Source of the DNA: Vicinamibacteraceae bacterium
GTDB lineage: Bacteria > Acidobacteriota > Thermoanaerobaculia > Multivoradales > Multivoraceae
Length of the DNA stretch: 64,000 bases
Reading direction: 5' to 3'
NCBI GenBank assembly: GCA_012270995.1
Contig: JAAXHG010000151.1
Location: 279-64,278 of the forward strand
Shown piece by piece: positions 4,151-22,478 of this stretch (position 1 is the first letter of the stretch; each line of letters opens with the position of its first letter). Under the pieces are notes generated by a model. The model made no database searches. It was given only the letters and a program-made list of their open reading frames with translations, and was not told the DNA's origin. Position numbers and translations under genes: made by a program.

Positions 4151-4181
4151 TGACACCGAGTCTTGGTTGTGTTCGGATCTT

Positions 4182-4260
4182 GGCTGCGGTGGCCGCTTGG
4201 AGCGGCTGATCGCAGTTTCCGCCTGAGCCCGACCCCCAGTTTGTAATGGGTAGGGCGGTT
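4182..4260 (+). ncRNA. Putative structured RNA upstream of NYN gene (candidate RNA antitoxin or leader)
   Basis: TTGACA at 4150-4155; hairpin 4182-4217 with G-U pairs; bulged hairpin GCCC-G-ACCC...GGGT-A-GGGC 4227-4256; followed by terminator. Confidence 0.45.
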
Positions 4261-4265
4261 GTCAT

Positions 4266-4296
4266 AGGGGCTCCCCAAGGGAGCCCCTCTTTGTTT
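4266..4296 (+). terminator. Intrinsic terminator directly upstream of NYN gene
   Basis: AGGGGCTCCC-caa-GGGAGCCCCT perfect 10-bp stem followed by ctttgttt. Confidence 0.75.
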
Positions 4297-4309
4297 GCCT
4301 GGAGGCATC

Positions 4310-5533
4310 GTGGACTACGTGGCGGTCTTCGTGGACGCCGGTTATCTGTTTGCTGCTGGTTCGGACGCTCTCAGCGGCAAGGTTCTCCCCCGAGGCGCAA
4401 CGCGCCTGGACTTGGACGACACCGTGGAGGCGCTGAAGGACATCGCCGAGCGAGCGTCCGGCGGCCTCCGGCTCCTGAGGATCTACTGGTACGACGGTAC
4501 CCAGGGGGAGCCGACCCTGATGCACCGTCGGCTAGCCAGGCACGCTCACGTCAAGGTGAGGCTGGGCATCGTGGACAGTCGCGGCCAGCAGAAGGGCGTG
4601 GATTCCCTCCTGGTGACGGACATGATCGCCTTGGCGCGCAACCGGGCGATGACGGAGTGCGTCCTGCTTTCCGGCGACGAGGACGTCAGGGTAGGGGTAC
4701 AACAGGCGCAGGAGTACGGAATTCGCGTTCACCTGTTGGGGGTGGGAACGGCGGCCTACAACCAGTCGGACCTGCTCGTTCAGGAAGCGGACGAACACTG
4801 GTTCTGGAAGGCAGACGATCTGAAGGCCTTCCTGACGATCAGGCTGCCGACCGAGACCGATGGGGCCAGGCCTCGCTCGCCCGAAGAGGTCGACCGGCGT
4901 TTGCTGGAGGTGGCGCGGACTGAGGCTGCCGAGGTCCCGGCGGGCGAGCGCGAGAAGATGAGCGGCTCCATCCGGCGCACAGGTCTACGGCCCAAGGAGA
5001 TAGACAGGCGGTTGTTGGGAAGGGCGGCAGGCGAGGCGCTTGACGGCGGGGTGCTGAGCGAGGAGCACAAGCGGCGTGTCCGAGACGCATTCCTGGAGTC
5101 CTTGGTCGAACTGCACGAGGTAGACACCGACGAAGCGTCCGGTTGCGCCCCTGAGGAGGTGTCCCGAGGCCGTCAGGGAGCGGCAAGTAGCGGCCAGTCC
5201 GCCGCGGAACAGATGGACGACGAACACGCGGACGCGGTCCAGGTGGACGAAGAACCCGCACTCGGCGCTGGAGATACGGCCGAGCGCTTGGTCGAAGTGG
5301 CGCGTAGCGAGGCGGAATCCGTGCCGGCGGGACGCCGAGAGGAGCTGATTCGCCACATCGAAGAGACCGGCTACCGGCCCCGAGAGGTCGACGCCGCCCT
5401 GCTGGCAAGGTGCTCGCGCGAGGTGCTCGGCGGCCGGGTGTTGGACGAAAGCCAACGGAAGCGGGCCCGGGACGCCTTCTCGGCGGCTCTGCGCGAGCTT
5501 CTACAGGTGGCGGCCGAGCCTGAAGACGAGTGA
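4310..5533 (+). CDS. NYN (LabA/DUF88, PIN-like) ribonuclease with duplicated C-terminal helical domain
   Basis: VFVDAGYL, LLRIYWYDG, QQKGVD, LLSGDED; GGAGG RBS at 4301 before GTG 4310; two ~70-aa C-terminal repeats. Confidence 0.88.
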   Translation: MDYVAVFVDAGYLFAAGSDALSGKVLPRGATRLDLDDTVEALKDIAERASGGLRLLRIYWYDGTQGEPTLMHRRLARHAHVKVRLGIVDSRGQQKGVDSLLVTDMIALARNRAMTECVLLSGDEDVRVGVQQAQEYGIRVHLLGVGTAAYNQSDLLVQEADEHWFWKADDLKAFLTIRLPTETDGARPRSPEEVDRRLLEVARTEAAEVPAGEREKMSGSIRRTGLRPKEIDRRLLGRAAGEALDGGVLSEEHKRRVRDAFLESLVELHEVDTDEASGCAPEEVSRGRQGAASSGQSAAEQMDDEHADAVQVDEEPALGAGDTAERLVEVARSEAESVPAGRREELIRHIEETGYRPREVDAALLARCSREVLGGRVLDESQRKRARDAFSAALRELLQVAAEPEDE

Positions 5534-5618
5534 TCGTCGGTTTGCTTACCGGTTCGCGGGCCTTGCTCCCTATCAGGGCGCCTCGTCGGCGGCTGCGGCA
5601 GCCTGTTCGTCGGCCAGC

Positions 5619-5797
5619 ATGTCCGACGCCGTCGCCGGCTTCCTGCGCGACGGCAAGCTGAAGATGACGATCGACTTCCGGCGGGTCTACGCGTCGATGA
5701 TCGAGGGCTGGATGGGCATGGACGACGCCTCCGCCGTCCTCAAGGGCGAGTTCCCGGCGCTGCCGGTGTTCGGCGTGACGTAGGCTTCGGGCCGGAA
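5619..5797 (+). repeat. Direct repeat copy 2: internally deleted duplicate of DUF1501 3' end
   Basis: 5619-5652 matches 3703-3736, joined at cgacg microhomology to 5648-5797 (= 3915-4064). Confidence 0.92.
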
Positions 5798-5862
5798 GGA
5801 TGTCCGGCTTCGGGGATCAGGTCGGCACTGAGATCGGACGGCACGGGAGGCCGCTGAGCGGG

Positions 5863-8226: not shown

Positions 8227-8229
8227 GAT

Positions 8230-9681
8230 ATGTCCGTCAGCACCCTGGTCAAGTCGATTCAGAACATCATGCGCCAGGACGCGGGCGTCGACGGCGACGC
8301 CCAGCGCATCAGCCAACTGTGCTGGATGTTCTTCCTCAAGATCATCGACGACCAGGACCAGGAACTCGAACTCTTCGACGACGGCTACCGCTCGCCCGTG
8401 CCCGCGGACCTGCGATGGCGGAGCTGGGCGGCCGACCCGGAAGGCATCACCGGCGAGGAACTGCTCGCCTTCGTCAACGGCGATCTCTTTCCCCGGCTCA
8501 AGGACCTCTCGCCCAGGACCGGCCCTCGCGCGAGCGTCGTGCGCGAAGTGTTCGAGGACGCGTACAACTACATGAAGTCGGGTCAGTTGATGCGGCAGGT
8601 GGTCAACAGGATCGACGGCATCGACTTCAACAACCTGGCCGCCCGCCAGCACTTCGGCGACATCTACGAGCAGATCCTGAACGACCTGCAATCGGCCGGC
8701 AACGCGGGCGAGTACTACACGCCGCGGGCCGTGACCACCTTCATGGCCCGGATGATCGACCCGAAGCCGGGCGAGATCCTGTTCGACCCGGCTTGCGGCA
8801 CGGGCGGGTTCCTCACCTGCGCCGTCCGGCACATGCGCGAGCGGTACGTGAAGCGGCCCGAGGACGAGACGGGCATGCAGGCGTCCCTCCGGGCCGTCGA
8901 GAAGAAGCCGCTTCCCCACATGCTCGCCACGACGAACATGCTGCTGCACGGCATCGAGGACCCGTCCTTCCTGCGCCACGACAACACCCTGGCGCGGCCC
9001 TACGTCTCCTGGGGCAAGGACGAGCGCGTGGACATCGTGCTGACCAATCCGCCGTTCGGCGGCAAGGAGGAGGACGGCATCGAGTCGAACTTCCCGCGGC
9101 ACTTCCGGACGCGGGAGACGGCGGATCTGTTCCTGGCCCTGATCGTCCGGCTGCTCAAGCCTGGAGGCAGGGCCGCCGTCGTCCTGCCGGACGGCTCCCT
9201 GTTCGGCGAAGGGGTCAAGACGCGGCTCAAGGAGCACCTGATGAAGGAGTGCAACCTGCACACCGTCGTGCGCCTGCCGAGCTCCGTGTTCCGTCCGTAC
9301 GCCTCGATCGGGACGAACCTGCTGTTCTTCGAGAAGGGCGAACCCACCGGGGACGTCTGGTTCTGGGAGCATCTCGTGCCCGAAGGCCAGAAGGCGTACT
9401 CCATGACACGGCCCATCCGGGTGGAGCATCTCGACGACTGCGCCGCCTGGTGGGGCGGGGCTGAGCGCGCGGGCCGGGAGGAGGGCGGCCGAGCCTGGAA
9501 GATGAGCGCCGAGGAGATCAGGGCGCGCGGCTACAACCTGGACATCCGGAACCCGCGCGCCGAGGAGGAGGACCTTGGCGATCCCGAGGCGCTTCTCGAG
9601 GAACTGACGAGCGCCGAGGCCGAGGTGGCGGCGGCGCGAGACGAGTTGAAGCGAGTCCTGACCGAGGCGCTCCTGCGGTGA
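8230..9681 (+). CDS. hsdM: Type I RM N6-adenine methyltransferase subunit
   Basis: GEYYTPR, DPACGTGGFL, TNPPFG. Confidence 0.95.
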   Translation: MSVSTLVKSIQNIMRQDAGVDGDAQRISQLCWMFFLKIIDDQDQELELFDDGYRSPVPADLRWRSWAADPEGITGEELLAFVNGDLFPRLKDLSPRTGPRASVVREVFEDAYNYMKSGQLMRQVVNRIDGIDFNNLAARQHFGDIYEQILNDLQSAGNAGEYYTPRAVTTFMARMIDPKPGEILFDPACGTGGFLTCAVRHMRERYVKRPEDETGMQASLRAVEKKPLPHMLATTNMLLHGIEDPSFLRHDNTLARPYVSWGKDERVDIVLTNPPFGGKEEDGIESNFPRHFRTRETADLFLALIVRLLKPGGRAAVVLPDGSLFGEGVKTRLKEHLMKECNLHTVVRLPSSVFRPYASIGTNLLFFEKGEPTGDVWFWEHLVPEGQKAYSMTRPIRVEHLDDCAAWWGGAERAGREEGGRAWKMSAEEIRARGYNLDIRNPRAEEEDLGDPEALLEELTSAEAEVAAARDELKRVLTEALLR

Positions 9682-11438
9682 ACGCCGACCGTTTGCTCGC
9701 GCTCTACGACCGCGTGGCGGAGGCGCCGGACGCCGTTGGCCGCCTGCGGCGATTCGTGCTGGACCTCGCCGTGCGGGGAAAGTTGGTGGAGCAGGATCCG
9801 GCGGATGAGCCGGCGTCGGAGTTGCTGAAGAGGATCGAGGCCGAGAAGGCGCGGTCGGTGAAGGCTGGGAACCTGAGAAGGCGGAAGCTGCCTTCTCGTT
9901 TCGGTGAGCCACCCTTCGCCCTTCCCGCGAATTGGCGTTGGTCTCGAATCGGCGACGTCGCAGGTGATCGAGGTCAGGGAATCCCCGACCGACCGTTTAC
10001 CTACATCGATGTGTCGGCCATCGACAAGAAGGCAGGTGTGGTCGCCGATCCGAGGGTGTTGGAGCCTGACAAGGCACCCAGCCGAGCTCGCAAGGTCGCA
10101 CGGTCCGGTGACGTTGTCTACTCCTGCGTTCGCCCGTACCTCTTGAATGTTGCCATCATCGAAGGTGATTACGACCCTCCCCCGATCGCCAGCACGGCAT
10201 TCGAGGTCTTGAACGGATACGGGCTCGTGCTGCCTCGGTACACGTGGATCGTCCTCCGCAGTTCGTTCATGATTGCGTGTGTTGAGCGAAGTCAGCGCGG
10301 CCAAGCGTACCCCGCGATCAACAGCACGGACTTCGCCGTTCTTCCTTTCCCACTCCCGCCCCTCGCCGAGCAGCACCGCATCGTCGCCAAGGTCGATGAA
10401 CTCATGGCCCTGTGCGACCGTCTGGACGAGGTCCGGGTCGCCCGCGAGGCTGGTCGGGATCGGTTGACCAGGGCCAGTCTGAGCCGCCTGAGCGCCCCCG
10501 AGCCCCCCGAAACGACCCGTTGCACGACCCGGGACGGCGGAAGCGTCGCCGCCGACCGCCCGGTCGCGGCGCGTCCGTTTCGTTCCCAGGCCCGGTTTGC
10601 CGTCGATGCCCTGCCCGCGCTCACCGCGCGCGCGGACCAGGTCGAGCATCTGCGCCAGACGATCCTCAACCTGGCCGTGCGTGGCAAGCTGGTGAGGCAG
10701 GACCCGGCGGACGAGTCGGCTTCGGAGTTGTTGAAGCGAATGACGGAGTCACTCCCGACACCGCGAAAGGTCCGGCAGCGGAAAACCGCTGCACGCCACG
10801 GCACTCCGGAGCGTCCCTTCGAGGTTCCTTGCTCTTGGAAATGGGCGGCGATCAACGTGGTCACTCAGGTGAACATGGGGCAGTCTCCCCGGTCCGAGCA
10901 CTACAACCGGACAGGTGCCGGCATGCCCTTTTTCCAGGGGAAGGCGGACTTCGGAGTGCGCCATCCTACTCCGCGCTTCTGGTGTACCAAGCCAACCAAG
11001 ATCGCCGAGCCCGGAGACATTCTGCTCTCGGTTCGCGCGCCCGTGGGGCCAACGAACGTGGCCGCTCAGAGATGCTGTATCGGACGGGGCTTGGCAGCAC
11101 TGCGTCCGCTTCCAGGACTCTCCTCCGACTTCCTACTACTCACCCTGCGAGCCTTTCGTGCCGACTTGGCGGCGCAGGGCTTCGGGACTACATTCGAGGC
11201 AATCACCAAGAAACAGTTGCTGTCCTACGGGCTCCCTCTCGCGCCCCTCGCCGAGCAGCGCCGCATCGTCGCCAAGGTCGACGAACTCATGGCGCTCTGC
11301 GATCGCCTGGAGGCAGGACTTGGCACTGCGGAGGCCAACCGAGGTCGTCTGCTCGACTCCCTGCTCCGTGACTCACTGACCTCTCACGAGACCGCGAGCG
11401 CCCAAGATGCCCTTGGCGCTGCGAGAGCCGGGGCATGA
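9678..11438 (+). CDS. hsdS: Type I RM specificity subunit
   Basis: Two TRDs bounded by repeated LAVRGKLV.QDPADE.ASELL and PLAEQ.RIVAKVDELMALCDRL. Confidence 0.93.
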   Translation: MNADRLLALYDRVAEAPDAVGRLRRFVLDLAVRGKLVEQDPADEPASELLKRIEAEKARSVKAGNLRRRKLPSRFGEPPFALPANWRWSRIGDVAGDRGQGIPDRPFTYIDVSAIDKKAGVVADPRVLEPDKAPSRARKVARSGDVVYSCVRPYLLNVAIIEGDYDPPPIASTAFEVLNGYGLVLPRYTWIVLRSSFMIACVERSQRGQAYPAINSTDFAVLPFPLPPLAEQHRIVAKVDELMALCDRLDEVRVAREAGRDRLTRASLSRLSAPEPPETTRCTTRDGGSVAADRPVAARPFRSQARFAVDALPALTARADQVEHLRQTILNLAVRGKLVRQDPADESASELLKRMTESLPTPRKVRQRKTAARHGTPERPFEVPCSWKWAAINVVTQVNMGQSPRSEHYNRTGAGMPFFQGKADFGVRHPTPRFWCTKPTKIAEPGDILLSVRAPVGPTNVAAQRCCIGRGLAALRPLPGLSSDFLLLTLRAFRADLAAQGFGTTFEAITKKQLLSYGLPLAPLAEQRRIVAKVDELMALCDRLEAGLGTAEANRGRLLDSLLRDSLTSHETASAQDALGAARAGA

Positions 11439-12583
11439 CTCGCGTGCCGGTAACCCCGGAGATGCTGCGCTGGGCCTGTGAGCGCTCCGGGCGCGGCATG
11501 GCGGACCTTGCGGCCCGCGTTCCTCAGCTTCCGGCCTGGGTACGAGGCGAGAAAAAGCCGACGCTCAAGCAGCTGGAGAAACTCGCCGCGGCTACGCGGA
11601 CGCCGTTCGGCTACCTGTTCCTGCGCGAACCGCCGGAGGAGCGCCTTCCGGTTCCCGACTTTCGCACCGTGTGGGGCGCCTCGCGGACGAGACCGAGTCC
11701 CGACCTGCTGGACACGCTCTACGCCATGCAGCGTCGCCAGGACTGGCTCCGGGAGTGCCTGCTCGAGAGCGACGTGGAACCGCTGCCGTTTGCGGGAAGC
11801 GCCCGTTTGACGGATGACCCGGCGTCCGTGGGTCACGAGATGCGGCGAGTACTCGGTCTCGATGACGGTTGGGCGGCGGGCGTAAGCACTTGGCGGGACG
11901 CCGTGAGGGAGCTTCGTCGGACCATCGAGCAGGCCGGCGTGATGGCCGTGATCAACGGAGTCGTCGGGAACAGCACAAGCCGGAAGCTGAGCGTGGAGGA
12001 GTTTCGAGGCTTTGCGCTCGCCGATGCCTACGCGCCGTTGATCTTTGTGAACGGCGCCGACGCCAAGTCGGCGCAGATGTTCACGCTCGCTCACGAGCTG
12101 GCTCACATCTGGCTTGGCACGGAGGGGGTCTCCGGCTTCGCGTCCCTGTTCCCCGGCGGTTCGGAGGTGGAGGACTGGTGCAACGCCGCCGCGGCTGAAC
12201 TTCTCGTCCCATCGGAAGAACTGGCGCCTCGTTGGCACGAGGTGAGGAGGGGGCCAAGGCCCTTCGAGACGCTCGCCCGGGCGTTCAAGGTGAGTCCGGT
12301 CGTTGCCGCCCGCCGGGCGCTGGACCTGGACCTTGTCGACGGCGACGTTTTTCGCAACTTCTACAGGCGGTATGTCAAACGCGATCGTGCGACTGGCGCC
12401 AGTTCCACTGGGGGCGACTTCTACAACAACCAGAACACCCGTGTGGGCGAGCTGTTCGCGTCCCACGTGCTCCGCGCGGCGATGGAGGGCCGCATTGGAT
12501 TCAAGGAAGCCTACGACCTGACTGGCTTGCGTGGCGGCACCTTCCAGAAGTACGCGAGGCGACTGGGCGTGAATCTCCCATGA
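11435..12583 (+). CDS. XRE-HTH + ImmA/IrrE (peptidase M78/DUF955) protein
   Basis: N-terminal HTH (WVRGEKKPTLKQLEKLA); FTLAHELAH HExxH; E..CN..AAELL. Confidence 0.9.
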   Translation: MTRVPVTPEMLRWACERSGRGMADLAARVPQLPAWVRGEKKPTLKQLEKLAAATRTPFGYLFLREPPEERLPVPDFRTVWGASRTRPSPDLLDTLYAMQRRQDWLRECLLESDVEPLPFAGSARLTDDPASVGHEMRRVLGLDDGWAAGVSTWRDAVRELRRTIEQAGVMAVINGVVGNSTSRKLSVEEFRGFALADAYAPLIFVNGADAKSAQMFTLAHELAHIWLGTEGVSGFASLFPGGSEVEDWCNAAAAELLVPSEELAPRWHEVRRGPRPFETLARAFKVSPVVAARRALDLDLVDGDVFRNFYRRYVKRDRATGASSTGGDFYNNQNTRVGELFASHVLRAAMEGRIGFKEAYDLTGLRGGTFQKYARRLGVNLP

Positions 12584-13103
12584 CCAAGGACACGACCTAC
12601 CTCGTGGACTCGGATGTGTTCATCACGGCGAAGAACCTGTACTACGCGTTCGGCTTGTGCCCCGGGTTCTGGAAGAGCGTTCTGCACCACCACCGCGGGG
12701 GGAGGATCTTCAGCGTCGACCGGGTTCGCGGTGAACTCCTCGTGGTACCGAGACGGAGGATCTCGTGCAGTGGGTCAAGGAAGAGGTTCCGCGGGAGTTC
12801 TTTCTTCCGGTGGATGCCGATGCTGTCGTGAGCGCCTACACGGAGATCATGATGTGGGTGCAGCGCCACGCGAGGTACTTCGACCACGCCAAGGCGAAGT
12901 TCGCCACGGGCGCGGACGGCTGGTTGGTTGCCTGCGCGCGGGTTCAGGGCGCGGCCGTGGTCACGAACGAGACGGAGGCGCCCGAGTCCCGGAGGGAGAT
13001 CAAACCTCCCGACGTGTGCGAGGAGTTCGGTGTGGAGCACCCCAACGTCTTCGAGATGCTCCGGGCGCTGGACGTCCGGTTCAACTGGACGGAGGCCCGT
13101 TGA
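12580..13103 (+). pseudogene. DUF4411 PIN-like nuclease, frameshifted near 12742
   Basis: YLVDSDVFITAKNLYYAF..CPGFW in one frame continues as EDLVQWVK...ADGWLVACA..VVTNE..IKPPDVC in another; ATGA overlap with upstream gene. Confidence 0.82.
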
Positions 13104-13116
13104 GTCACCTTGGCAC

Positions 13117-13659
13117 ATGATCGACTTCCGCCTGGACAACAACTGCCTCGTCAATCTCGATCCAGGCGCCTCCGACAAAGCGAGGAACCACGACAGCGCG
13201 GCTGCTCTTCGAGAATTGGTCAAACAGGCACCGGAGCACGTCTGGTTCTCCTGGGAGAGCTCCTCCGAACGAGGTCCCGGCGGCGCAGAGCCCGAGAGGT
13301 TCCCGGCACGATTCCGTGAACGCCTTCAGAGGATAGGCATCGCAGAAAGCCAAGGCGTGTTGTCCGCGTCGGTCGTTGGACACATGCGGTTGGACTACTC
13401 TCGCCTGCCAATGGAGAACGAAAGCGTCCTGTCGAGATCGATGGCGCAAGTGCTGCTTGGCCATGCGCTGGTAGACGAGAGGAAGAGAAGCCGGCGGTGT
13501 GACGTATGGGAGTCAGGCCATGAGCCTTGTCCAGATTCGCGCAGAGCCGAGCGGCTGGAAGTGCGAACGCGGCTGCGTGGGAGAGCGGTTCGGAGAGCCT
13601 ATGGCGCAGCTTCTGGTCTGGTTGTCGTCGGAGTGGCGGCTCACGCCGAAGGAGTGTGA
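13117..13659 (+). CDS. Hypothetical protein, possibly degenerate PIN-like
   Basis: MIDFRLDNNCLVNL N-terminus resembles a PIN beta1-Asp motif; C-terminal half looks degraded. Confidence 0.4.
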   Translation: MIDFRLDNNCLVNLDPGASDKARNHDSAAALRELVKQAPEHVWFSWESSSERGPGGAEPERFPARFRERLQRIGIAESQGVLSASVVGHMRLDYSRLPMENESVLSRSMAQVLLGHALVDERKRSRRCDVWESGHEPCPDSRRAERLEVRTRLRGRAVRRAYGAASGLVVVGVAAHAEGV

Positions 13660-13722
13660 GGCCGCCTTGGGAGTACCGAGAACCCGGCACCAGGAAGCGT
13701 GGTGTGGAGGAGAGTCGAGAAG

Positions 13723-15519
13723 ATGAGGCACCTGCACTACCTGACGATCGAGAACTTCAAGGGGTTCGGCGACGCCGTTCGCATCGAGCTCGACCACCCC
13801 GCGGTGCTTGTCGGTCCGAACAACTGCGGCAAGACGACGGCGCTTCAGGCGATCGCGCTGTGGTCCCAGGCGGTCCGGACGTGGTTCGATCGCAAGGGGC
13901 GGGCGCCTCCGAAGGAACGTACGGCGACGGGGCTGAGCCGCCTGGCCGTCGTTGCGGTTCCCGTTCGGAGCATGCGCGACTATTGGCACAACATGATCGT
14001 CAGGACGGGACGCGCGAACGTACCGCTCGACATCACGCTCGGGGTTTCCCGGAGCAATCGGGTTGAACCGGTCACCATGCGGTTCCGTTCGTTCGGGGAC
14101 GAAACGGTGTACTGCACGCCGACCGATAAGACCCTGGAAGTCCCCGAGTTCATCGAGGCGGCGGCCAGTCTGAATGTCCGACTGCTGTACCCGATGTCCG
14201 GCATCGAAACCGAGGAGCCGGTGGTTCAACCCGGCCGAATCGACGTGCTGCTCGGTCAGGGCCAGACGGCGCAGGTGCTGCGGAACCTGTGTCTCATGGC
14301 GTTTCGAGCGGACCACGCCGCGTGGGCGCGGATACAGGAACTGGTGAAACGTCTGTTTGCGGTGGACCTCGAGAAACCCGTCGAAACCGCGCGAGGGGCA
14401 ATAGACCTCTTCTACCGGCAGCATGGCGTGCGGAGGCCGGTCGACATCGCGCTTGCTGGTCGAGGGCTTCAGCAGATGCTCCTCATCCTTGCGTACCTGC
14501 ATTCGCACCCTCGAAGCGTCCTCCTGATCGACGAACCGGATGCGCATCTGGAGATTCTCCGCCAAAGGCAGGCCTACGTGCTGCTCCGCGACGAGGCCGC
14601 GCGAAGCGAGTCCCAGGTCGTGCTCGTCACGCACTCCGAGGTCATCCTGGGAGAAGCGCTGGAGCGAAATCTGACACTCCTTCACGGCGGGACGGCCGAC
14701 GAGCTGGCGTCCAGGAGCGCCATCGTGTCCGCGCTGCGGCACTACGGGGCCGAGCACTACATCCGCGCCCGCCAGAGCGGTTACGTGCTCTATGTCGAAG
14801 GCGGCAGCGACTTCGCCGTGTTGCGGGCGCTGGCGACGAGACTGGGCCATCCTGCCGCCGGCGTGTGGGACGAGAACGCGAACGTCTACTACGTTCGGGA
14901 CAACTATCCCGCGACCGACGAGGCATCCGAACTCGAACGAGTCGAGGAGGGCTTCGGTCTGAGTCCCGACCGGCACTTCTTCTCCCTTCGGCCGATGCTG
15001 CCGAATCTGAAGGGGCTGGCGATTCGCGACCGAGACGGGGTCCCGCGCGAGGACTCGACCGAGGGAGGTCTGACTACGTCGTACTGGCATCGCTACGAGA
15101 TCGAGAACTACATCGTGAGCCCCGAGGTCCTGCGCGCGTATACGGCCCACGCATACCGGGACCTGCCGCTCTTCGACGAGTTTCGCCGCGAGACCGAAGA
15201 AGTGCTCGATGAACTGGTTCTCGAAGCGGTCTTTGGCGGGAGGGAGCGCGACTTTCGCACCTGGAAGAGGCTGGAACCCGAACCGGCGCGCCTGTTGTGG
15301 GAAGCCCGGACCACGGGACTCAAGCTCAGCGACTTCGCCGAGGAGTTCTTTCGGCGGCTGGCGGAGAGGCTCGGTCACGCGATGCTGCTCAGGAAGCGGG
15401 ACCTTCATCAACTCGTCAGTTTCGTGGCGCCGGAGGTCATTGCGGATGAAGTGTCCGAGAAGCTGGGGCTGCTCGCCGATTTGTTCGAGAATGCGAACGC
15501 GAGCGACGATCACGGGTGA
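13723..15519 (+). CDS. ABC/AAA ATPase fused to TOPRIM-like domain (OLD-family/PARIS-fusion-like nuclease)
   Basis: IENFKGF, Walker A GPNNCGKT, signature GRGLQQ, LLIDEPDAHL, THS; YVEGGSD, DRD, YEIENY. Confidence 0.85.
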   Translation: MRHLHYLTIENFKGFGDAVRIELDHPAVLVGPNNCGKTTALQAIALWSQAVRTWFDRKGRAPPKERTATGLSRLAVVAVPVRSMRDYWHNMIVRTGRANVPLDITLGVSRSNRVEPVTMRFRSFGDETVYCTPTDKTLEVPEFIEAAASLNVRLLYPMSGIETEEPVVQPGRIDVLLGQGQTAQVLRNLCLMAFRADHAAWARIQELVKRLFAVDLEKPVETARGAIDLFYRQHGVRRPVDIALAGRGLQQMLLILAYLHSHPRSVLLIDEPDAHLEILRQRQAYVLLRDEAARSESQVVLVTHSEVILGEALERNLTLLHGGTADELASRSAIVSALRHYGAEHYIRARQSGYVLYVEGGSDFAVLRALATRLGHPAAGVWDENANVYYVRDNYPATDEASELERVEEGFGLSPDRHFFSLRPMLPNLKGLAIRDRDGVPREDSTEGGLTTSYWHRYEIENYIVSPEVLRAYTAHAYRDLPLFDEFRRETEEVLDELVLEAVFGGRERDFRTWKRLEPEPARLLWEARTTGLKLSDFAEEFFRRLAERLGHAMLLRKRDLHQLVSFVAPEVIADEVSEKLGLLADLFENANASDDHG

Positions 15520-15526
15520 CGCCGGG

Positions 15527-15560
15527 CGCCTGGAGGTGTCGCGGTGGATCGGGTGACGTT
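15527..15560 (+). pseudogene. Probable remnant of an NYN gene start (RBS + first codons)
   Basis: gcctggagg...GTG GAT CGG GTG vs gcctggagg..GTG GAC TAC GTG at 4297-4321. Confidence 0.4.
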
Positions 15561-15722
15561 GATCACCGCGAAACCGGCCGACAGTCAGCCGGGTCATCCA
15601 GCGGGCTGGAAATGCGACGGTTAGCGTTAGCGTTAGCCGCGTACCGGTGGGAAGCTGGATTTTGACCCCACTGCCCGCCGGCGCCGACCGGGACGGCGGC
15701 CATGGCCGCCTATAATGCGGCG

Positions 15723-16220
15723 ATGGACGCCGTGTACGACCGCCTGCTTGCGGAGGTCACGGCCGCCTGCCGCCGGTGCTACGGCGAGCGCCTGCTTTCT
15801 CTCGCGGTCTTCGGGTCCGTCGGGCGGGGCACGCCGCGCTCCGACTCGGACATCGACCTGTTGCTCGTCGCGGCCGACCTGCCGGACGGGCCGGTGGCGC
15901 GCAACGAGGAGTTCAGGGCCGTCAGGAAGGCCATGGCCCCAAGTCTGAAGGCGGTCGGAGCGGAAGGGCTGCACCCGGAACTGTCGCCGATCATAAAGAC
16001 CCGCGCCGAACTCGACCGGGGCACGCCGCTTCTGCTCGACATGACGGAGGACGCCCGCATCCTGCACGACCCGCGGGGCATTCTCGCCGCCGCCCTCGAC
16101 CGGCTTCGGAGGCGGCTCCGTGAGTTGGGCTCGCGACGCATCTGGCGGGGCCGCCGCTGGTACTGGGACCTCAAGCCGGATTACCGGCCCGGCGAGATCT
16201 TCGAGCTCTTCGGGCGGTGA
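15723..16220 (+). CDS. Minimal nucleotidyltransferase (MNT) antitoxin
   Basis: FGSVGRG..SDIDLL motif; GTGA overlap with HEPN gene. Confidence 0.88.
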   Translation: MDAVYDRLLAEVTAACRRCYGERLLSLAVFGSVGRGTPRSDSDIDLLLVAADLPDGPVARNEEFRAVRKAMAPSLKAVGAEGLHPELSPIIKTRAELDRGTPLLLDMTEDARILHDPRGILAAALDRLRRRLRELGSRRIWRGRRWYWDLKPDYRPGEIFELFGR

Positions 16221-16651
16221 CGAACGGCGCCCTGGCCGCCAGCTATCTGGCGAAGGCGACTCTGCGCCTCGAAATCCTGCCGATGCTCTTCGATCGGGCC
16301 GGCTACTCCGACGTGGTCCGCGAGGCGCAGGAGATCGTGGAACTGGCGCTCAAGGGAATGCTGCGTCAGGCGGGCATCGAGGCCCCGCACTGGCACGACG
16401 TAGGCGGCGTGCTGCGCGAGCACGCGAGTCGGTTCCCCACGGCGGCGGACGCCACGATCGACGACCTCGCGGAACTCTCCGCGTGGCTGCGCGAGAACCG
16501 GGAACTCTCGTTCTATGGAGACGACGACTTCATCCCGACTGAACGCTACACCCGCGAGGACGCTCAACGCGCGATCGACGGCGCCCGATCGGCGGTGTCC
16601 GTTGCCGGGACGGTGATCGGAAACGACGCGAAGCGGCACGGAAACCGCTGA
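16217..16651 (+). CDS. HEPN-domain toxin (MNT-HEPN TA)
   Basis: AQEIVELALKG, HD, R..SFYG HEPN pattern; coupled to MNT. Confidence 0.85.
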   Translation: MTNGALAASYLAKATLRLEILPMLFDRAGYSDVVREAQEIVELALKGMLRQAGIEAPHWHDVGGVLREHASRFPTAADATIDDLAELSAWLRENRELSFYGDDDFIPTERYTREDAQRAIDGARSAVSVAGTVIGNDAKRHGNR

Positions 16652-16656
16652 GACGG

Positions 16657-16761
16657 ATGGACAAGCGAGCGCTCTCGGAGCGCGAAGCCCGGACGATGTT
16701 CATCACGCCCGCCCCGCGCGGGATGCGGCAGGCGCTGGACTGCGCCGAGATTCTGAACGTA
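16657..16761 (+). pseudogene. Collapsed hsdR remnant
   Basis: MDKRALSEREARTMFITPA~MNKRDLTETDIRTKFITPA joined in frame to MRQALDCAEILNV~MQQALDYAETLNI. Confidence 0.8.
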
Positions 16762-16856
16762 CGGCCGCGCGTCGGCGTGCTGCCGCCGGTATCGACTTCA
16801 CGAGTACCGGCCCCTGAACATGTCTTTTTCAAAGTTCGGGTTACAATCCGTCATGG

Positions 16857-18053
16857 ATGATGGAGAGGAGAGTCCTCCCACGACGGGTTGAGCGAGCGGT
16901 GAACGAGGCGCTTGCTCGGCAGGCGGCCGTGGGCCTCATCGGGCCTCGTCAGGTTGGCAAGACGACGCTGGCCTGGCGGATCGCCGAGAGCCGGGACGCT
17001 CTCTACCTCGACCTGGAGTCCAGCGCCGACCGGATCAAGCTCGGCGACCCGAACCTGTTCCTTGGCGAGTACGAGGACCGGCTCGTGGTGCTGGACGAGA
17101 TTCACCGGGCGCCGGAGCTCTTCCGCGACCTTCGTGGACTGATCGACCGGGGAAGGCGGCGGGGCAAACGCCACGGTCGCTTTCTGATTCTGGGGTCGGC
17201 GAGTATCGATCTGCTTCGGCAGTCCGGCGAGAGTCTTGCCGGGAGGATCGAGTACGTCGAGCTCGGACCGGTGGACGTTCTGGAGATCGCCGCCGAGGCC
17301 CCGCCTCTGACCTCGTTGTGGTTGCGCGGGGGATTCCCGGACAGCCTCCTCGCCGACAGCGACGCGGAGAGTCTGGCGCTGCGACAGAGCTTCGTGCGCA
17401 CGTACCTGCATCGGGACGTGTTCGATCTGACCGGGAGGCGTTTGCCGGCCGAGACGTTGGAACGTCTGTGGACGATGCTCGCGCACGGCCAGGGTACGGT
17501 TCTGAATGCGTCGAAACTGGCTGCGAGCCTGGCCGTCAGCGCACCCACGGTGTCGACCTACGTCGATCTCCTGGTCGATCTGATGCTCGTGCGGCGGTTG
17601 CCGCCGGTTCGGGCGAACGTCGGCAAGCGCTTGGTCAAGTCGCCCAGGGTCTACGTCAGGGACAGCGGCCTGGTGCATGCTCTGCTCGGCATCGCCGACT
17701 ACAACGCGCTGGCCGGGCACCCCGTCGCGGGCGCGAGCTGGGAGGGCTTCGTCGTGGAGAATCTCCTCGGGGCGGCGCCGCAAGGCGCCCGGGCTGGTTT
17801 CTACCGCACCCGCTCCGGCGCCGAGATCGACCTCGTCCTTGAGCTGCCCGGCGAGCAGCGGCCATGGGCCATCGAGATCAAGCGCGCGTCGGCGCCGCGG
17901 CCGAGTCGGGGCCTCCACCACGCGCGGGAGGACGTGAAGGCTGACCGCACCTACATCGTCGTCGGCGGCGCGGAGCGCTATCCGGTGGCGAGGGGGATTG
18001 AGGTCATCGGTCTCGCCGACCTGACTCGTCTCCTGGCCCGCGAGCGGCCGTAG
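16857..18053 (+). CDS. AAA_14 ATPase with DUF4143 (PD-D/ExK-like) C-terminus
   Basis: GPRQVGKTTL, VLDEIH, ILGSAS, ESLAGR, GGFP, KSPRVY, EIDLVL..IEIK. Confidence 0.9.
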   Translation: MMERRVLPRRVERAVNEALARQAAVGLIGPRQVGKTTLAWRIAESRDALYLDLESSADRIKLGDPNLFLGEYEDRLVVLDEIHRAPELFRDLRGLIDRGRRRGKRHGRFLILGSASIDLLRQSGESLAGRIEYVELGPVDVLEIAAEAPPLTSLWLRGGFPDSLLADSDAESLALRQSFVRTYLHRDVFDLTGRRLPAETLERLWTMLAHGQGTVLNASKLAASLAVSAPTVSTYVDLLVDLMLVRRLPPVRANVGKRLVKSPRVYVRDSGLVHALLGIADYNALAGHPVAGASWEGFVVENLLGAAPQGARAGFYRTRSGAEIDLVLELPGEQRPWAIEIKRASAPRPSRGLHHAREDVKADRTYIVVGGAERYPVARGIEVIGLADLTRLLARERP

Positions 18054-18093
18054 GTGGTCGATGCGGCAACGGCGGCGTGACTCAGGCCGAAGC

Positions 18094-18402
18094 ATGACCC
18101 GCGCACCAGTAAGCCCGGAGACACTGCGCTGGGCCCGTGAGCGTCGGCCCGGCGAGATCTTCGAGATTTTCGGACCGTGACGGGCGGCGCGCTCGCCGCC
18201 AGCTATCTGAGGAAGGCGTTTGCGGCGGAGAGGGTGGATGGACTACTTGGCGGTCCCGAGGCCGGTCGACGCGATCCTGTTCGCGAGGCCGAATTCGGCG
18301 ATTGGCGGCGAGCTCTTGAGTGACGGCTAGAAGGAGAGCGTCCGAACGGCTTTCCTGGAGTTCCTGATCGAGCTTCACCAGGCTGCGACTGTCGATCGCT
18401 GA
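18094..18402 (+). pseudogene. Mosaic of collapsed ImmA/IrrE, MNT, HEPN and NYN fragments
   Basis: MTRAPVSPETLRWARE (ImmA start) fused to RPGEIFEIFGP* (MNT end); GTG TGGALAASYL (HEPN start); MDYLAV + PRPVDAILFAR...VRTAFLEFLIELH (NYN start + C-terminal repeat). Confidence 0.8.
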
Positions 18403-18435
18403 CCGGCGCTGCCCGTGTTCGGCGCGACATAGGGC

Positions 18436-19068
18436 TCACCGGATCTCGACGTAGCGGGCGAGCCGCTCCACCTCGTCGTCGTCGACGTACTTTCCGATTT
18501 CGCGACGGAATTGGGACATCGCTTCGTAGGGACGGTACTCCTCGAACTCGTGACGCATGCGGCGGCCGACGCCGGGGATGCTCAGAATGTCCTCGCCGGA
18601 GGCGGTGTTCAGATCGATGCGGACGTAGACGTACTGGGCGAGTCGCGCCACTTCGTCGTCGTCGACGTACTTGCCGATCTCGCGGTGGAACTGGGCCAGC
18701 GCAGTGTAGGGACGGTACTCCTCGAACTCGTGGGTCATGCGGCGCCCGACCCCGGGGATGAGCCCGATTTCCTCGGAGGTCGCCTCGTTCAGGTCGATGG
18801 GGACCCAGATCGCGCCGTAGACGGCGTCGTACTGGTCTTCGGCCACGTGGGCGGAGACGACGGCGTGAAGGTCGGCGGCCTGCAGGAAGGGGCGGCCGTC
18901 CACGATGGCGGCGACCGCGTCTCCGTCGAGCCCGTCGACTGCGGAGAGTTCTTCCTCGCTGGCGAGGTTTGGGTTCAGCAGTCCGTTGTTCGCGCCGACC
19001 TGAGCGGCGGCGGGGATTCCGAGAGAGAACAGGACCGCGGTAGCCCAGATTAGGTTGCGTCGATTCAT
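18436..19068 (-). CDS. Exported ComEA-like helix-hairpin-helix repeat protein
   Basis: Signal peptide; three IDLN.A..E.I..IPGVG-type HhH units. Confidence 0.8.
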   Translation of the reverse strand: MNRRNLIWATAVLFSLGIPAAAQVGANNGLLNPNLASEEELSAVDGLDGDAVAAIVDGRPFLQAADLHAVVSAHVAEDQYDAVYGAIWVPIDLNEATSEEIGLIPGVGRRMTHEFEEYRPYTALAQFHREIGKYVDDDEVARLAQYVYVRIDLNTASGEDILSIPGVGRRMRHEFEEYRPYEAMSQFRREIGKYVDDDEVERLARYVEIR

Positions 19069-19193
19069 CGGCTGATCCTGAGTTGGGGTTGAGAGTGAGG
19101 GGGAGGCGGCGACCGCAGGGTCAATCGTGTGTAGCCGGGAGCACAGACGTCCAGCATGGCGAAGACGCTCCGGAGCTGGAGCTGCGCCACGAA

Positions 19194-19682
19194 TCAGGCG
19201 GCTTCGGGTAGTCCGGCGAGGACCAGCTCGGATGGCTTGGGGTTGTTGGTGGGTGCGGTCTCGACGAACAACGTGACGCTATGGCGAAGGGCGGGATTCG
19301 GTCGCACCGGGAGTTCGGACTGGACCAGGCCGGCTGCGACCTTCTTTCTCGCCGCGTCGAACGCGTGAGCGGCCCAGGCGTCCGTGTCCTTGAAGAACCC
19401 GGAGACCTTCCGCTCGAACACGTCGAAGTCGGGCGCGTCCGCAGCGATGTCGTAGAGCGCGAGTTCCGTGTTCGTTTTCAGGTCGAGGTAGGCCTCGATC
19501 AGGGTGTCGCCCACGCCGGCGACGCCGCCCGGCTTCAGGCCGTGCGCGAGGAAGCCGTCCTCCTCCTCGGTGACCACGGCGCCCCCACGAAACTCGACGC
19601 CGGCGGCGAAGCCCGGGCCTTGTACGGGGATCTGTAATCGGAACACGATCGGGTAGACCGTGTCCGGCATGGGATCGATCAT
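19194..19682 (-). CDS. Hypothetical protein, HicB-like antitoxin fold suspected
   Basis: EEEDGFLAHGLKPGGVAGVGDTLIEAYLDL resembles HicB N-domain. Confidence 0.5.
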   Translation of the reverse strand: MIDPMPDTVYPIVFRLQIPVQGPGFAAGVEFRGGAVVTEEEDGFLAHGLKPGGVAGVGDTLIEAYLDLKTNTELALYDIAADAPDFDVFERKVSGFFKDTDAWAAHAFDAARKKVAAGLVQSELPVRPNPALRHSVTLFVETAPTNNPKPSELVLAGLPEAA

Positions 19683-19722: not shown

Positions 19723-20148
19723 TCAGCGGCTTTCCCGGCCGGCAGCCGGGTGCTGGAGGGCGACGAGTATACCGAGCAGACCCAGCATGGTCATCGCTCC
19801 CGGCGCCAGGGTCGGCATGGCGCCGCCCAGACTCTCCGTGATGAGCTCGAGCCCGCCGGAGTTCGGGTGCAGCTCCTGCTCGAACTCGACGTTCGACTGG
19901 AAGTGGAAGTAGACGCCCAACAGTCCGGCGGGCACGTAGGCCGCCAGCAGGATGCGGAACGTCCGGACTGCGGTGCGGGACGGACGCGCGGCCAGCCACA
20001 CCCCCACAGTCGTGCCGGCGACGATGAGCACCAACGGGATCCACTGCCGCCAGTCTTCGTAGTGGTCCAGCAGATACAACTCCGCCAGTAGCCCCACCGC
20101 TCCGAAGAGCAGGATGTACAGCAGGTACCGCCGCCAGGCCTCGATCAC
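19723..20148 (-). CDS. Hypothetical 4-TM membrane protein
   Basis: Hydrophobic helices; overlaps ADH stop codon. Confidence 0.75.
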   Translation of the reverse strand: MIEAWRRYLLYILLFGAVGLLAELYLLDHYEDWRQWIPLVLIVAGTTVGVWLAARPSRTAVRTFRILLAAYVPAGLLGVYFHFQSNVEFEQELHPNSGGLELITESLGGAMPTLAPGAMTMLGLLGILVALQHPAAGRESR

Positions 20149-22310
20149 GGGGCCTGAGAGCCCTGCTCGTCGGCGAGCATGTTGCGGCGGTAGAGCACGT
20201 AGGCCTTGATCAGGGCGACGTCGTCGCGGGCGAGGACGGGGGCGAAGCTGGGCATGCCGAGGTCGACGAGGGCGCCTTCAAGCAAGGCTGCCTCGTAGGA
20301 GTTGAAGACGCGCTGTGACGATTGCCGCAGGTCCGGTGTGACGCCGCCGGAGACGGCGCCGTAGCCGTGGCAGACGAGGCAGTACTGGTTGAACAGCCGG
20401 CGTCCGGCGTCGATGTCCTCCGCCTCTGCGCCGTGGTCTATGCGGGTGACCCGGATCTCGCGGCGTTCCTGTCGCTCGATCGGCCTGCCGGTGGCGCCGA
20501 GGGCGTAGACGACGATCCGGCCTTCGGACTCGACGGCTTGCCGGGCCGAGCGGCTGCCGACGATGCCGAAGGCGCCGCCCCAGCCGGACATCACCGCGAT
20601 GTACTGGGTGCCGCCGGACTCGAAGGTGATCGGCGGCGCGATGACGCCGCTGCCGGTGTAGCTCTCCCAGAGCTTCTCACCGTCGTCGGCGCGGTACGCG
20701 GTCAACTGGCCGAAGGGGGTGCCCTGGAAGACAAGGTTGCCGGCGGTGGCCAGCGTGCCGCCCGACCAGGGCATCGTGTACTGGGCCCGCCAGACCTCGC
20801 GCTGCGCGACGGGATCCCAGGCCAGCAGGTGGCCGGAGAGCAGGGCCGGCGGCGCGTCCTCGGCCAGCATCTGGCCTGAGAGGCCGGTGGCGTCGACGAT
20901 TGCCTGCGGAATGTCCTCGGGAGACGCCGCGCGCACTCCCAGGTTCCACTGCCCCGGGGTGTACTCGTAGTTGGGATCCGGGACGTAGAAGTTCCCCATC
21001 TCCATCGCCGGGATGTAGACGAGGCCGGTCTTCGGGCTGAAAGCCATCGGGTGCCAGTTGTGGCCGCCGAGCGGCCCCGGCATTACGTTGACGGTCTGGT
21101 CGGTGTAGCGCGCTCCCGCGAGCTCGACCGGCCGGCCGCTCGCCAGATCGACATGGCTGGCCCAGGTGACGGTGACGAACTCCTCGGCCGAGATCAGTTC
21201 GCCGGTGCGGCGATCGAGGACGTAGAAGAAGCCGTTCTTCGGCGCCTGCATGAGAACCTGGCGGACGCGGCCGCCGATCGGCAGCTCGGCGAGCATGATC
21301 GGCTGCGTGGCGGTGTAGTCCCAGGTGTCGCCGGGCGTCGTCTGGTAGTGCCAGACGTACTCGCCGGTGTCGGGGCGGACCGCCACGATGGAGGACAGGA
21401 AGAGGTTGTCGCCGCCGCCGGGGCTACGCAGATTGCGGTCCCAGGGCGCGCCGTTGCCGACGCCGAGGTACAGCAGGTCGAGTTCCGGGTCGTAGACGAT
21501 GGAATCCCAGACCGTGCCGCCGCCGCCTCCCGTCCACCACTCGCCGGTCCAGGTCTCGGCGGCCATTCGCATCGCCTCGTTCTCGAAGCCGTCCGCCGGG
21601 TTGCCGGGCACGGTGTAGAAGCGCCAGGCGCGCTCGCCGGTCTCCGCGTCGTAGGCGTCGACGTAGCCGCGCACGCCGTACTCGGCGCCGCTGTTGCCGA
21701 TGATCACCTTGCCCCTGGCGATCCGGGGCGCGCCGGTGATCGTGTACATCGAGTCCTCGGGCACGGTCATCGCCGACCAGGCGAGTTCTCCGGTCTCGGC
21801 GTCGATGGCGATCAGACGGCCGTCGAGCGTGGCGGAGATCACCTTGCCGCGGTACAGGGCGGCGCCGCGGTTGACCGCATCGCAGCAGGTCTTGTTCGCG
21901 ATCGAGCGCGAAACTTCCGGGTCGTAGGTCCACAGCGGTTCGCCGGTCACCGCGTCGAGGGCGTAGATCACGTTCCAGGCGCCGGTCGCGTACATCACGC
22001 CGTCGACGATCAGCGGGGTGGCCTCGAGGCCGCGCTTCGTGTTCGTCTCCTGGACCCAGGCGATGCCGAGCTGATCCACATTGCCGTCGTTGATCTGGTC
22101 CAGGACGCTGTAGCGCTGCTCCTTGTAGGTGCCCCCGTAGGTCAGCCAGTCGCCGGTGCGTCCGGCGGCGCCGATCAGAGCGGCGTCGTCGACCGCGTAG
22201 GCGGCCTCTGCCCGGCGGGGCGGCGGTTGGGCGACTGTAGCGGCGGTCAGGAATAACGACGCCGTAACCGCGCCCAGCGTCTGGACGCTAGAGGTACGTG
22301 AAGATCTCAT
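20145..22310 (-). CDS. PQQ-dependent quinohaemoprotein alcohol dehydrogenase (type II)
   Basis: Signal peptide, vicinal CC (TCCDAVNRG), W-docking repeats, WDYTA, QAPKNGF, C-terminal CLVCH heme c. Confidence 0.92.
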   Translation of the reverse strand: MRSSRTSSVQTLGAVTASLFLTAATVAQPPPRRAEAAYAVDDAALIGAAGRTGDWLTYGGTYKEQRYSVLDQINDGNVDQLGIAWVQETNTKRGLEATPLIVDGVMYATGAWNVIYALDAVTGEPLWTYDPEVSRSIANKTCCDAVNRGAALYRGKVISATLDGRLIAIDAETGELAWSAMTVPEDSMYTITGAPRIARGKVIIGNSGAEYGVRGYVDAYDAETGERAWRFYTVPGNPADGFENEAMRMAAETWTGEWWTGGGGGTVWDSIVYDPELDLLYLGVGNGAPWDRNLRSPGGGDNLFLSSIVAVRPDTGEYVWHYQTTPGDTWDYTATQPIMLAELPIGGRVRQVLMQAPKNGFFYVLDRRTGELISAEEFVTVTWASHVDLASGRPVELAGARYTDQTVNVMPGPLGGHNWHPMAFSPKTGLVYIPAMEMGNFYVPDPNYEYTPGQWNLGVRAASPEDIPQAIVDATGLSGQMLAEDAPPALLSGHLLAWDPVAQREVWRAQYTMPWSGGTLATAGNLVFQGTPFGQLTAYRADDGEKLWESYTGSGVIAPPITFESGGTQYIAVMSGWGGAFGIVGSRSARQAVESEGRIVVYALGATGRPIERQERREIRVTRIDHGAEAEDIDAGRRLFNQYCLVCHGYGAVSGGVTPDLRQSSQRVFNSYEAALLEGALVDLGMPSFAPVLARDDVALIKAYVLYRRNMLADEQGSQAP

Positions 22311-22478
22311 GGTTTGGATTCTCCTTGAGCCTGGGAGCGGGGGCATCCCGCCAGCATCCGGACGATCACGCTGCTGTCCCGGCTCGTCGTCTGGGTCCCC
22401 TGACGGCAGCGTAAGGGCGACGAGGACCGGTGGCGTACCGCCGCCGCCGCGACGGCGGTGACGAGGCCGGATGTGTGG

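Follow-up and report, generated by a model that had tools for sequence, protein, structure and literature searches.

The locus studied here raises the question of whether a short spacer pieced together from the ends of defence genes is the residue of an earlier island or a device that still serves some purpose. The spacer lies in a 64,000-nucleotide stretch (hereafter the window) from a Vicinamibacteraceae bacterium (assembly GCA_012270995.1, contig JAAXHG010000151.1, positions 279 to 64,278 of the forward strand), inside the 382 bp between the stop codon of a DUF4143/AAA_14 ATPase gene and that of a gene for a helix-hairpin-helix (HHH) protein on the opposite strand. An earlier note on this DNA had described positions 18094–18402 as an ordered mosaic of fragments of four genes, and had offered two explanations: a collapsed earlier copy of the neighbouring island, or gene ends retained as landing pads for the exchange of cassettes. 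The interpretation favoured in the present study, with a probability of about 0.78, is that a slightly longer segment, 18074–18433, is the decayed right end of an older layer of a stacked defence-gene array, situated in a hotspot between the HHH gene and a gene for a DUF1501 protein (hereafter X). The stubs most likely do nothing today, and are probably dead debris rather than a working device. The source genome is a 201-contig assembly, and the window has a G+C content of 67%. A genus sample of 42 genomes was compared, and a search with the stub stretch covered 61 genomes; genomes and loci are referred to by G and L numbers, a prime denotes a stub, and features are on the forward strand unless stated otherwise. 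Gene identities are from Pfam matches and links to defence systems from PADLOC.

The row consists of four stubs and a tail. Stub 1 (18074–18143) holds the last 20 bp of an hsdS gene (18074–18093) and the first 16 codons of an ImmA/IrrE gene (18094–18141), and is 78.6% identical to sequence of G064 and G025. Stub 2 (18145–18218) carries the last 12 codons and stop of an MNT nucleotidyltransferase gene (18142–18180), a GTGA overlap and the first 14 codons of a HEPN gene (18177–18218), with 86.5% identity both to 16185–16258 of the window and to G063. Stub 3 (18218–18255) is made up of 20 bp of the region upstream of a NYN-domain gene (18218–18237) and its first six codons (18238–18255), at 94.7% identity to G008 and G032, and stub 4 (18256–18402) of the last 48 NYN codons, with an internal TAG at 18328–18330 and the terminal TGA at 18400–18402 (85.0–86.4% to G033, G012, G008 and G029a). 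These are followed by tail 3 (18403–18433), in which the final 31 bp of X occur for a third time and which is 90% identical to both 4021–4051 and 5754–5784. Stubs 1 and 2 together form a 28-codon open reading frame (ORF; 18094–18180) that specifies MTRAPVSPETLRWARE from ImmA followed by RRPGEIFEIFGP from MNT and a stop, the GTGA overlap is intact (GTG at 18177–18179, TGA at 18178–18180), and stubs 3 and 4 are joined in frame behind the NYN ATG at 18238. The in-frame union of an ImmA start with an MNT end, the retention of the MNT/HEPN overlap (18177–18180) with 14 codons of HEPN, and the in-frame union of a NYN start with its C-terminal part across a single TAG, all proposed in the earlier note, are therefore borne out. 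The hsdS 3' stub and tail 3 were absent from that description, as were three pieces outside the row that are described below (tail 2, a second hsdR piece and an AAA_21 fragment at 4071–4150).

Comparison of the window with itself supports these assignments. Positions 18086–18153 match the start of the resident ImmA gene (11427–11497; 80%, 58.3 bits, E 6e-11), 18145–18218 the resident MNT end and HEPN start (16185–16258; 86.5%, 79.7 bits, E 2e-17), and 18297–18395 the resident NYN gene (5035–5133; 67.7%, 52.5 bits), with a further match of 60% between 18251–18387 and NYN positions 5375–5512. When 100 dinucleotide-preserving shuffles of 18086–18402 were compared with the window, their best scores had a median of 29.7, a 95th percentile of 35.4 and a maximum of 42.5 bits, and the three scored alignments, 79.7, 58.3 and 52.5 bits, are thus significant against the kind of shuffled background that the earlier note had proposed as a check. 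The NYN start gives a weak match to the window's own NYN gene (17 bp, 24 bits), within the range of the shuffles, and was settled in the relatives, where the 38 bp at 18218–18255 are about 95% identical to the upstream region and start of NYN in G008 and G032. Positions 18256–18427 are 87% identical to the 3' end of the G008 gene. Exactly 672 bp (224 codons) are missing from the NYN stub relative to G008, and 306 bp relative to G033 and G029a. The codons left in the row (16 of ImmA, 12 of MNT, 14 of HEPN and 6 + 48 of NYN with its internal TAG) cannot encode the parent proteins. No Pfam match was found among the local ORFs, and the genome holds no further copies of the row beyond the paralogous genes.

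The site itself is a variable hotspot between two convergent genes. X (2536–4050; PF07394), the conserved left flank, is present in 41 of the 42 genus genomes, and the HHH gene (18436–19068, reverse strand; HHH_3), the conserved right flank, in 32. By match coordinates the two lie 9–18 nt apart, leaving the site empty, in 12 of the 42; four of these sites were fetched, and in each the HHH match begins at most 30 nt from the end of the X match, the junction sequence being inspected in three (G007, G015 and G031). The site is occupied by 0.27–14.4 kb in 18 genomes, this one counted. Among the remainder, X and HHH are on separate contigs in one, one is without an X match, and ten are without an HHH match at E<=1e-20. 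The contents vary between relatives. The hsdRMS-ImmA-DUF4411 block occupies the site in G034; it is preceded by an internal hsdR fragment and MNT-HEPN in G063, and takes the form hsdRMS-ImmA-DUF4411'-DUF4143 in G024. Shorter forms are hsdR'-ImmA-DUF4411'-DUF4143 (G028), hsdR'/hsdS'-ImmA-DUF4411 (G035, G025 and G064, and with a shorter stub in G023) and ImmA-DUF4411 (G027). G033 has an hsdR fragment, MNT-HEPN and a shortened NYN gene, then the tail and HHH; G008 has an intact NYN gene of 278 aa, G012, G032 and G029 damaged ones, and G065 fragments only. Full-length genes thus occupy the stub positions, in the same order, in relatives (G033, G063, G034, G024, G035 and G008), which was the outcome looked for when an alignment of related islands was suggested.

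Several other features of the hotspot were seen in the relatives. A fragment of about 100 bp from inside hsdR (similar to window 6851–6955, 80–83%) stands between X and MNT in G063 (1295–1387) and G033 (6638–6740), and is another stub of an older layer. In G025 and G064 the DUF1800-DUF1501-HHH locus is present twice, at a distance of about 12 kb, and the hotspot of each copy has contents of its own; in G064 a DDE transposase gene (DUF772/DDE_Tnp_1) lies between the two. Apart from that transposase, a Pfam scan of ORFs here and in the relatives' loci, which was not exhaustive, revealed no integrase or relaxase domain. The insert of about 4.1 kb between X and HHH in G016 has no ORF of at least 60 codons with a third-position G+C typical of the genome. 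The HHH copies are shortened or contain stops in G008, G029, G065, G064 and G025, and the HHH gene of the window carries an internal tandem duplication of about 190 bp (18440–18629 against 18620–18809, 79%).

The right end of the row shows from which line of alleles it descends. The junction formed by the NYN stop, the X tail and the HHH stop is common to stub 4 with tail 3 and to G008, G033, G012 and G029a, and tail 3 adjoins the HHH stop exactly as X does in the empty sites of G007, G015 and G031. The NYN stub is 85.0/85.7% identical to the genes of G033/G012, and the adjacent HHH gene 86.1/87.0%; over the relatives the stub scores 85.0–86.4%, against 67.7% to the window's own NYN gene. Since its identity to the relatives' genes equals that of the flank, and its identity to the resident gene is lower, the stub is their orthologue, inherited with the flank, and the NYN gene at 4310 is another allele. 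The earlier observation that the fragments are diverged is therefore correct, and the NYN stub, at 68% to the resident gene, belongs to a different allele line. The MNT/HEPN stub is equidistant from the resident pair and from G063 (86.5% each), and for the ImmA stub identity is 80% with the resident gene and 73–79% with the genes of relatives. The two alignments that meet at the ImmA'/MNT' junction share a short, G+C-rich overlap in which matching is imperfect, and a few bases are common to both sides of the NYN junction; such short, imperfect overlaps fit ordinary illegitimate deletion.

Remains of other layers are found elsewhere in the array. Tail 2 (5642–5797; 156 bp) is a second copy of the 3' end of X and a direct repeat bounding the NYN module; 5648–5797 is 98.7% identical to 3915–4064 over 150 bp, a copy that runs past the end of X to include 14 bp downstream of it, and tail 2 is preceded by sequence that is not from X. 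From 5648 onwards the window is collinear with the end of X and hsdRMS-ImmA-DUF4411 of G034. Direct repeats of the X 3' end thus stand at unit boundaries, with tail 2 at 98.7% and tail 3 at 90%. A fragment from inside the AAA_21 ATPase gene (4071–4150) is 86% identical to 14961–15041 within the resident gene. The hsdR remnant that had been noted at 16657 is genuine (5839–5924 against 16634–16718, 76%) and comprises two pieces (16620–16819), the upstream region with about 20 codons (16620–16722) and codons ~110–145 (16719–16819), joined in frame. Together with the 50 bp conserved upstream of DUF4143 they form a 67-codon ORF (16657–16860) whose stop overlaps the DUF4143 start as ATGA. Over 15681–16722 the window runs collinear with MNT-HEPN-hsdR of G063 at 83.3%, the HEPN/hsdR junction included. 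Further stubs in this locus and in the relatives include hsdR', hsdS', DUF4411', DUF4143' and AAA_21', and the array can be read as three partial series of one gene order: AAA_21'...NYN-tail 2; hsdR...HEPN; and hsdR'...hsdS'-ImmA'-MNT'-HEPN'-NYN'-tail 3.

The sequence of events may then have been as follows. An older layer would once have read (hsdR-hsdM-)hsdS-ImmA...MNT-HEPN-NYN-[DUF1501 tail], and a series of deletions, whose ends had at most short and imperfect matches, would have removed the interiors of its genes to leave four collinear stubs, the order being kept because deletions cannot reorder. The intact NYN gene, the hsdRMS-ImmA-DUF4411 block, and the AAA_21, MNT-HEPN and DUF4143 genes would be younger or separately acquired layers of a like array, and the layers, as related but diverged versions of it, would have been stacked beside repeated copies of the 3' end of X. 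For as long as a downstream gene remained useful, the deletions that survived are likely to have been those sparing the promoter-proximal start, the ribosome-binding region of the next gene and the overlap of stop and start.

Similar layers could also arise within a single genome, if the island had been doubled once or twice by unequal crossing-over between the X tails and had then lost genes in a complementary way, and both the three partial series of one gene order and the direct repeats flanking the array would suit such a history. The divergences, however, do not: identity of the NYN stub is 68% with the resident gene and 85–86% with the NYN genes of other species, a level that the flanking gene shares, so that the stub and the resident NYN separated earlier than the species. 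For the other stubs, the resident copies (76–86%) are no closer than those of relatives (71–86%), and the HEPN/hsdR junction is common to G063, so that part of the stack predates this genome. Tandem duplication in this genome is accordingly unlikely, and the earlier proposal of a collapsed island copy stands in part, in that full genes occupy the same places in the same order in relatives and the NYN stub is orthologous to theirs, though the row is probably not a duplicate of the resident island. The other proposal, that gene ends are retained as homology for integrase-free swapping of cassettes by homologous recombination, draws on the recurrence of gene-end stubs in several genomes, on the position of the window's DUF4143 cassette between the hsdR stubs and the hsdS/ImmA stub, and on the 150-bp, 98.7% repeat that bounds the NYN module and could have let an incoming NYN-plus-tail allele recombine before the array. 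Efficient RecA recombination is usually quoted as requiring roughly 25 bp of identity. The exact runs between a stub and an intact copy are 9–21 bp within an overall identity of 68–86%, and at or below that length they make poor substrates. Breakpoints also differ between genomes, the DUF4143 cassette, the only one observed to lie between hsd stubs, is flanked elsewhere by DUF4411', the HHH gene or X, and no pair of stubs was seen to enclose two different cassettes. As landing pads the stubs are thus not supported, and this explanation is quite improbable; tail 2 alone is long enough, and may have provided homology for the stacking.

An assembly in 201 contigs invites the suspicion that versions of the hotspot from different strains of a metagenome were joined at common sequences, with the intact genes and the stubs in truth on different chromosomes; the public runs that hold the stretch include metagenomes, and the layers meet near repeated sequence. 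Nevertheless, in a public run that was assembled separately one contig spans 17359–18684 (the DUF4143 end, all the stubs and HHH) without differences, and although that run may be the source sample, the stretch itself is for this reason not an assembly slip. Tail 2, with 156 bp and non-X sequence before it, is not what would be expected of a short-word join at a 31-bp tail, and the single-contig genomes G063 and G033 have comparable stacked, stub-bearing arrays. A chimera is very improbable. Least probable of all is a working leader, in which the 28-codon ImmA'-MNT' ORF and the part following it would still be translated, with an effect on the 3' ends of the converging DUF4143 and HHH transcripts, or would yield a micropeptide. 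The ORF is open, has the upstream region of ImmA and ends in a GTGA overlap, and similar micro-ORFs with an hsdR start precede intact ImmA genes in other genomes. Here, however, nothing intact follows it, since HEPN' has 14 native codons and NYN' carries a TAG, and the ImmA'/MNT' junction has no spanning match in the 61 genomes and no exact match in metagenome contigs. No structured-RNA signal was found either: Rfam gave no match at E<=1 across 3900–19300, and the RNA fold of 18054–18440 is no more stable than those of shuffles (z -0.10). A scan of 16500–19200 gave no promoter-like site and just two terminator-like ones, each within the HHH gene.

The positions of the deletions bear on how the older layer decayed. 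The hsdR codons kept number 27 in G035, G064 and G025, 8 in G023 and about 24 in G028, and NYN genes have lost 366 bp at two different junctions (G033 and G029a) or 672 bp (the window). That breakpoints differ between genomes speaks against fixed recombination sites. The earlier note had set breakpoints at the same fragments against random ones, and the outcome is mixed, as they are not at the same fragments in relatives and yet are not random, lying near gene ends and mostly in frame. The 156-aa NYN genes of G033 (L028:7027-7497) and G029 (L035, about 1658-2128) have lost 122 codons in frame, and with them the Pfam NYN core, at junctions three codons apart (GTKLQ/TSNQ and GT/SMTSNQ, with the slash at the junction); there may be a reason why the C-terminal part is retained. 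Eight of the ten scorable coding-to-coding junctions are in frame (binomial P=0.0034, in a tally made by eye once the pattern had been seen): ImmA'-MNT', the NYN' 5' to 3' join and the join between the two hsdR pieces in the window; and hsdR'-hsdS' of the G035 type and of G023, NYN' of G033 and of G029a, and hsdR 154-502 of G065 in the relatives. The tally left out the hsdR' micro-ORF of G028, whose 3' parent is unclear, and a remnant of X at 5618–5652. Junctions with a non-coding side were not scored (HEPN' to NYN upstream, the second hsdR piece to DUF4143 upstream, and the left ends in G062, G003, G012 and G032).

A more neutral test was obtained by looking for the hsdR N-terminal pattern, in three frames, within the 900 bp upstream of ImmA in the best 80 of 287 ImmA relatives, which come from many phyla. 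The pattern was found in 6 of the 80 loci, in all six in the frame that leads to a TGA overlapping the ImmA ATG; five are continuous micro-ORFs (L058 and L059, with one common junction, L062, L067 and L085) and one, L086, is interrupted. Five distinct hsdR' junctions all in one frame have P=0.004. Many loci without hsdS keep its last ~13 codons, with a purine-rich stretch just upstream of the ImmA start. Micro-ORFs running from a real start codon to the start of the next gene are then seen at 18094–18180 (GTGA) and 16657–16860 (ATGA), in G035-type loci, G023 and G028, and in L062, L067 and L085. Overlapping stop and start codons such as ATGA and GTGA are known to allow translational coupling, and non-polar in-frame deletions make use of the same principle. 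The micro-ORFs resemble coupled overlaps in leading from the start codon of a lost gene to a stop on the start codon of the next, and differ from engineered non-polar deletions in having arisen naturally and repeatedly, by the collapse of hsdR-hsdM-hsdS before ImmA, the coupling itself being putative. In operons with overlapping stops and starts, upstream deletions would persist mainly if the start, the next initiation region and termination at the overlap are kept. The recurrence of micro-ORFs with an hsdR start in several phyla suggests selection for non-polar, translationally coupled deletions, and the clustering of breakpoints near gene ends, together with their frame, would be explained by selection that keeps downstream genes expressed rather than by recombination. 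A literature search, which was not exhaustive, found no paper on in-frame collapse junctions in defence islands, and the in-frame, boundary-keeping pattern is a modestly novel lead.

A number of points weigh against this account of the locus. Two of the ten junctions are out of frame, both in G065, where no intact gene remains, and the related genomes of the tally are not independent, so that some events may share ancestry. ImmA begins with ATGA in most loci, its second codon starting with A, and the overlap itself is therefore not evidence. Two fragments, hsdR codons ~110–145 and AAA_21', are internal rather than terminal. Other HEPN/MNT pairs are toxin–antitoxin systems, and if the same holds here, the ImmA'-MNT' fusion would leave HEPN without MNT; coupling to an unpaired HEPN would not have been favoured, and this in-frame join may be chance (1 in 3). 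The manner in which the layers were stacked is one that we infer, and the 14-kb stack comes from the 201-contig assembly, of which only 17359–18684 has been seen in another assembly, possibly from the source sample. Three RNA runs with the same species label have no reads on 16400–19200, and are uninformative for expression. A bolder version, which is tentative and on balance doubtful, is that stubs are kept by selection as in-frame adaptor micro-ORFs, with a promoter-proximal start and a stop/start overlap leading to the downstream cassette, so that cassettes such as type I restriction genes can drop out without silencing their neighbours; 18074–18433 would then be a fossil chain of adaptors and, separately, the X 3' repeat would serve as integrase-free homology for the stacking of alleles.

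The intact genes around the row complete the picture. A DUF1800 gene (929–2782) precedes X, and the intact NYN gene (4310–5533; PF01936) is a long allele with a duplicated C-terminal repeat and about 70% DNA identity to that of G008. The resident block (5779–13103), collinear with G034 over 7560 aligned bases at 81.6%, consists of hsdR (5779–8226), hsdM (8227–9681), hsdS (9678–11438), ImmA/IrrE (11435–12583), which has a weak helix-turn-helix match and matches RmrA/CapP-like models of PADLOC, and DUF4411 (12735–13103). Its hsdS is only 41–43% identical to those of G034, G063 and G024, against 83–90% for hsdR and hsdM, which is the usual swapping of target-recognition domains; part of the G024 hsdS is 77% identical. 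The best 80 of the 287 ImmA/IrrE relatives were kept, at 64–90% identity, and the relatives' genomes belong to Acidobacteriota, Gemmatimonadota, Chloroflexota (Caldilineaceae), Rhodothermales, Gamma- and Alphaproteobacteria, Spirochaetia, Planctomycetota and others, which suggests wide movement of the cassette between phyla. In the spacer of about 600 bp that separates DUF4411 from AAA_21 (13104–13698), the ORFs tried on both strands gave no Pfam match, and no collinear match was found in relatives. The AAA_21/AAA_15 ATPase gene (13699–15519; AriA/GajA/Old-like models of PADLOC) likewise has no collinear match in relatives, and among the fetched loci occurs only in this genome. The MNT (15702–16220) and HEPN (16217–16651) genes form a resident pair that, with 21 bp upstream, spans 15681–16651. 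The DUF4143/AAA_14 gene (16857–18053; PADLOC PDC-S01) belongs to a cassette (16807–18057) whose ends agree within ~20 bp in G024, G028 and G003, and of which G012 keeps only a 5' stub; its flanks in these four genomes differ, being DUF4411', the HHH gene or X and not hsd stubs. The ends of the cassette are thus nearly constant in four flanks, with ~50 conserved bases upstream of the start. Integron-like attC sites were considered and set aside; only 20 bp follow the DUF4143 stop. The X' remnant at 5618–5652, taken for an in-frame deletion, is probably a join at a 17-bp internal DUF1501 repeat or a weak match. Beyond HHH lies a PQQ dehydrogenase gene (20145–22346, reverse strand).

In the parts of their texts available, published accounts describe comparable processes, of which the stub row is a clear new instance. 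Belot et al. 2026 (PMC13617665) report the erosion of chromosomal toxin–antitoxin and defence loci to remnants in variable "spots", and propose integrase-free spread through recombination at flanking core genes. As in that work, the remnants were found here by permissive similarity search in syntenic intervals, loss was by truncation and deletion, and the islets are without mobile-element genes; unlike there, as far as that text goes, several cassettes have been cut to stubs of 38–178 bp in one row beside intact paralogous copies, and most junctions are in frame, a term not mentioned in the available part. Tandem accretion of genomic islands is described for cis-mobilizable elements (PMC5704250) and for the ssrA islands of Dehalococcoides (PMC3146451). 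The array described here likewise adjoins the 3' end of a target gene, has repeated 3' ends as direct repeats (31 and 150 bp here, 20 bp at ssrA), and places older, decayed units beside newer ones with no integrase left. It differs from what the available parts describe in that the target is a protein gene (DUF1501), that one repeat, at 150 bp, is longer than the usual att core, and that no integrase or relaxase was seen among the ORFs scanned. Defence hotspots between core genes are known in Escherichia coli, with islands defined there as having at least 10 genes (PMC10121019), and in Pseudomonas (PMC10250203). Like those of E. coli, the present site has a fixed position between conserved genes and stands empty in many genomes, while in others it holds defence systems that vary; it differs in belonging to the genus Candidatus Multivorans and in holding single small cassettes, and stubs are not treated in the part of PMC10121019 available.

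The locus is an unusually legible example of the turnover of a defence hotspot, with layers stacked at repeats of a core-gene 3' end and the older ones whittled down to stubs. It helps other short "intergenic" spacers in defence islands to be read as history and not as new elements. If the collapse of upstream genes survives mainly in frame and ending on the next start, then translational coupling would constrain the way in which operons decay in defence islands.

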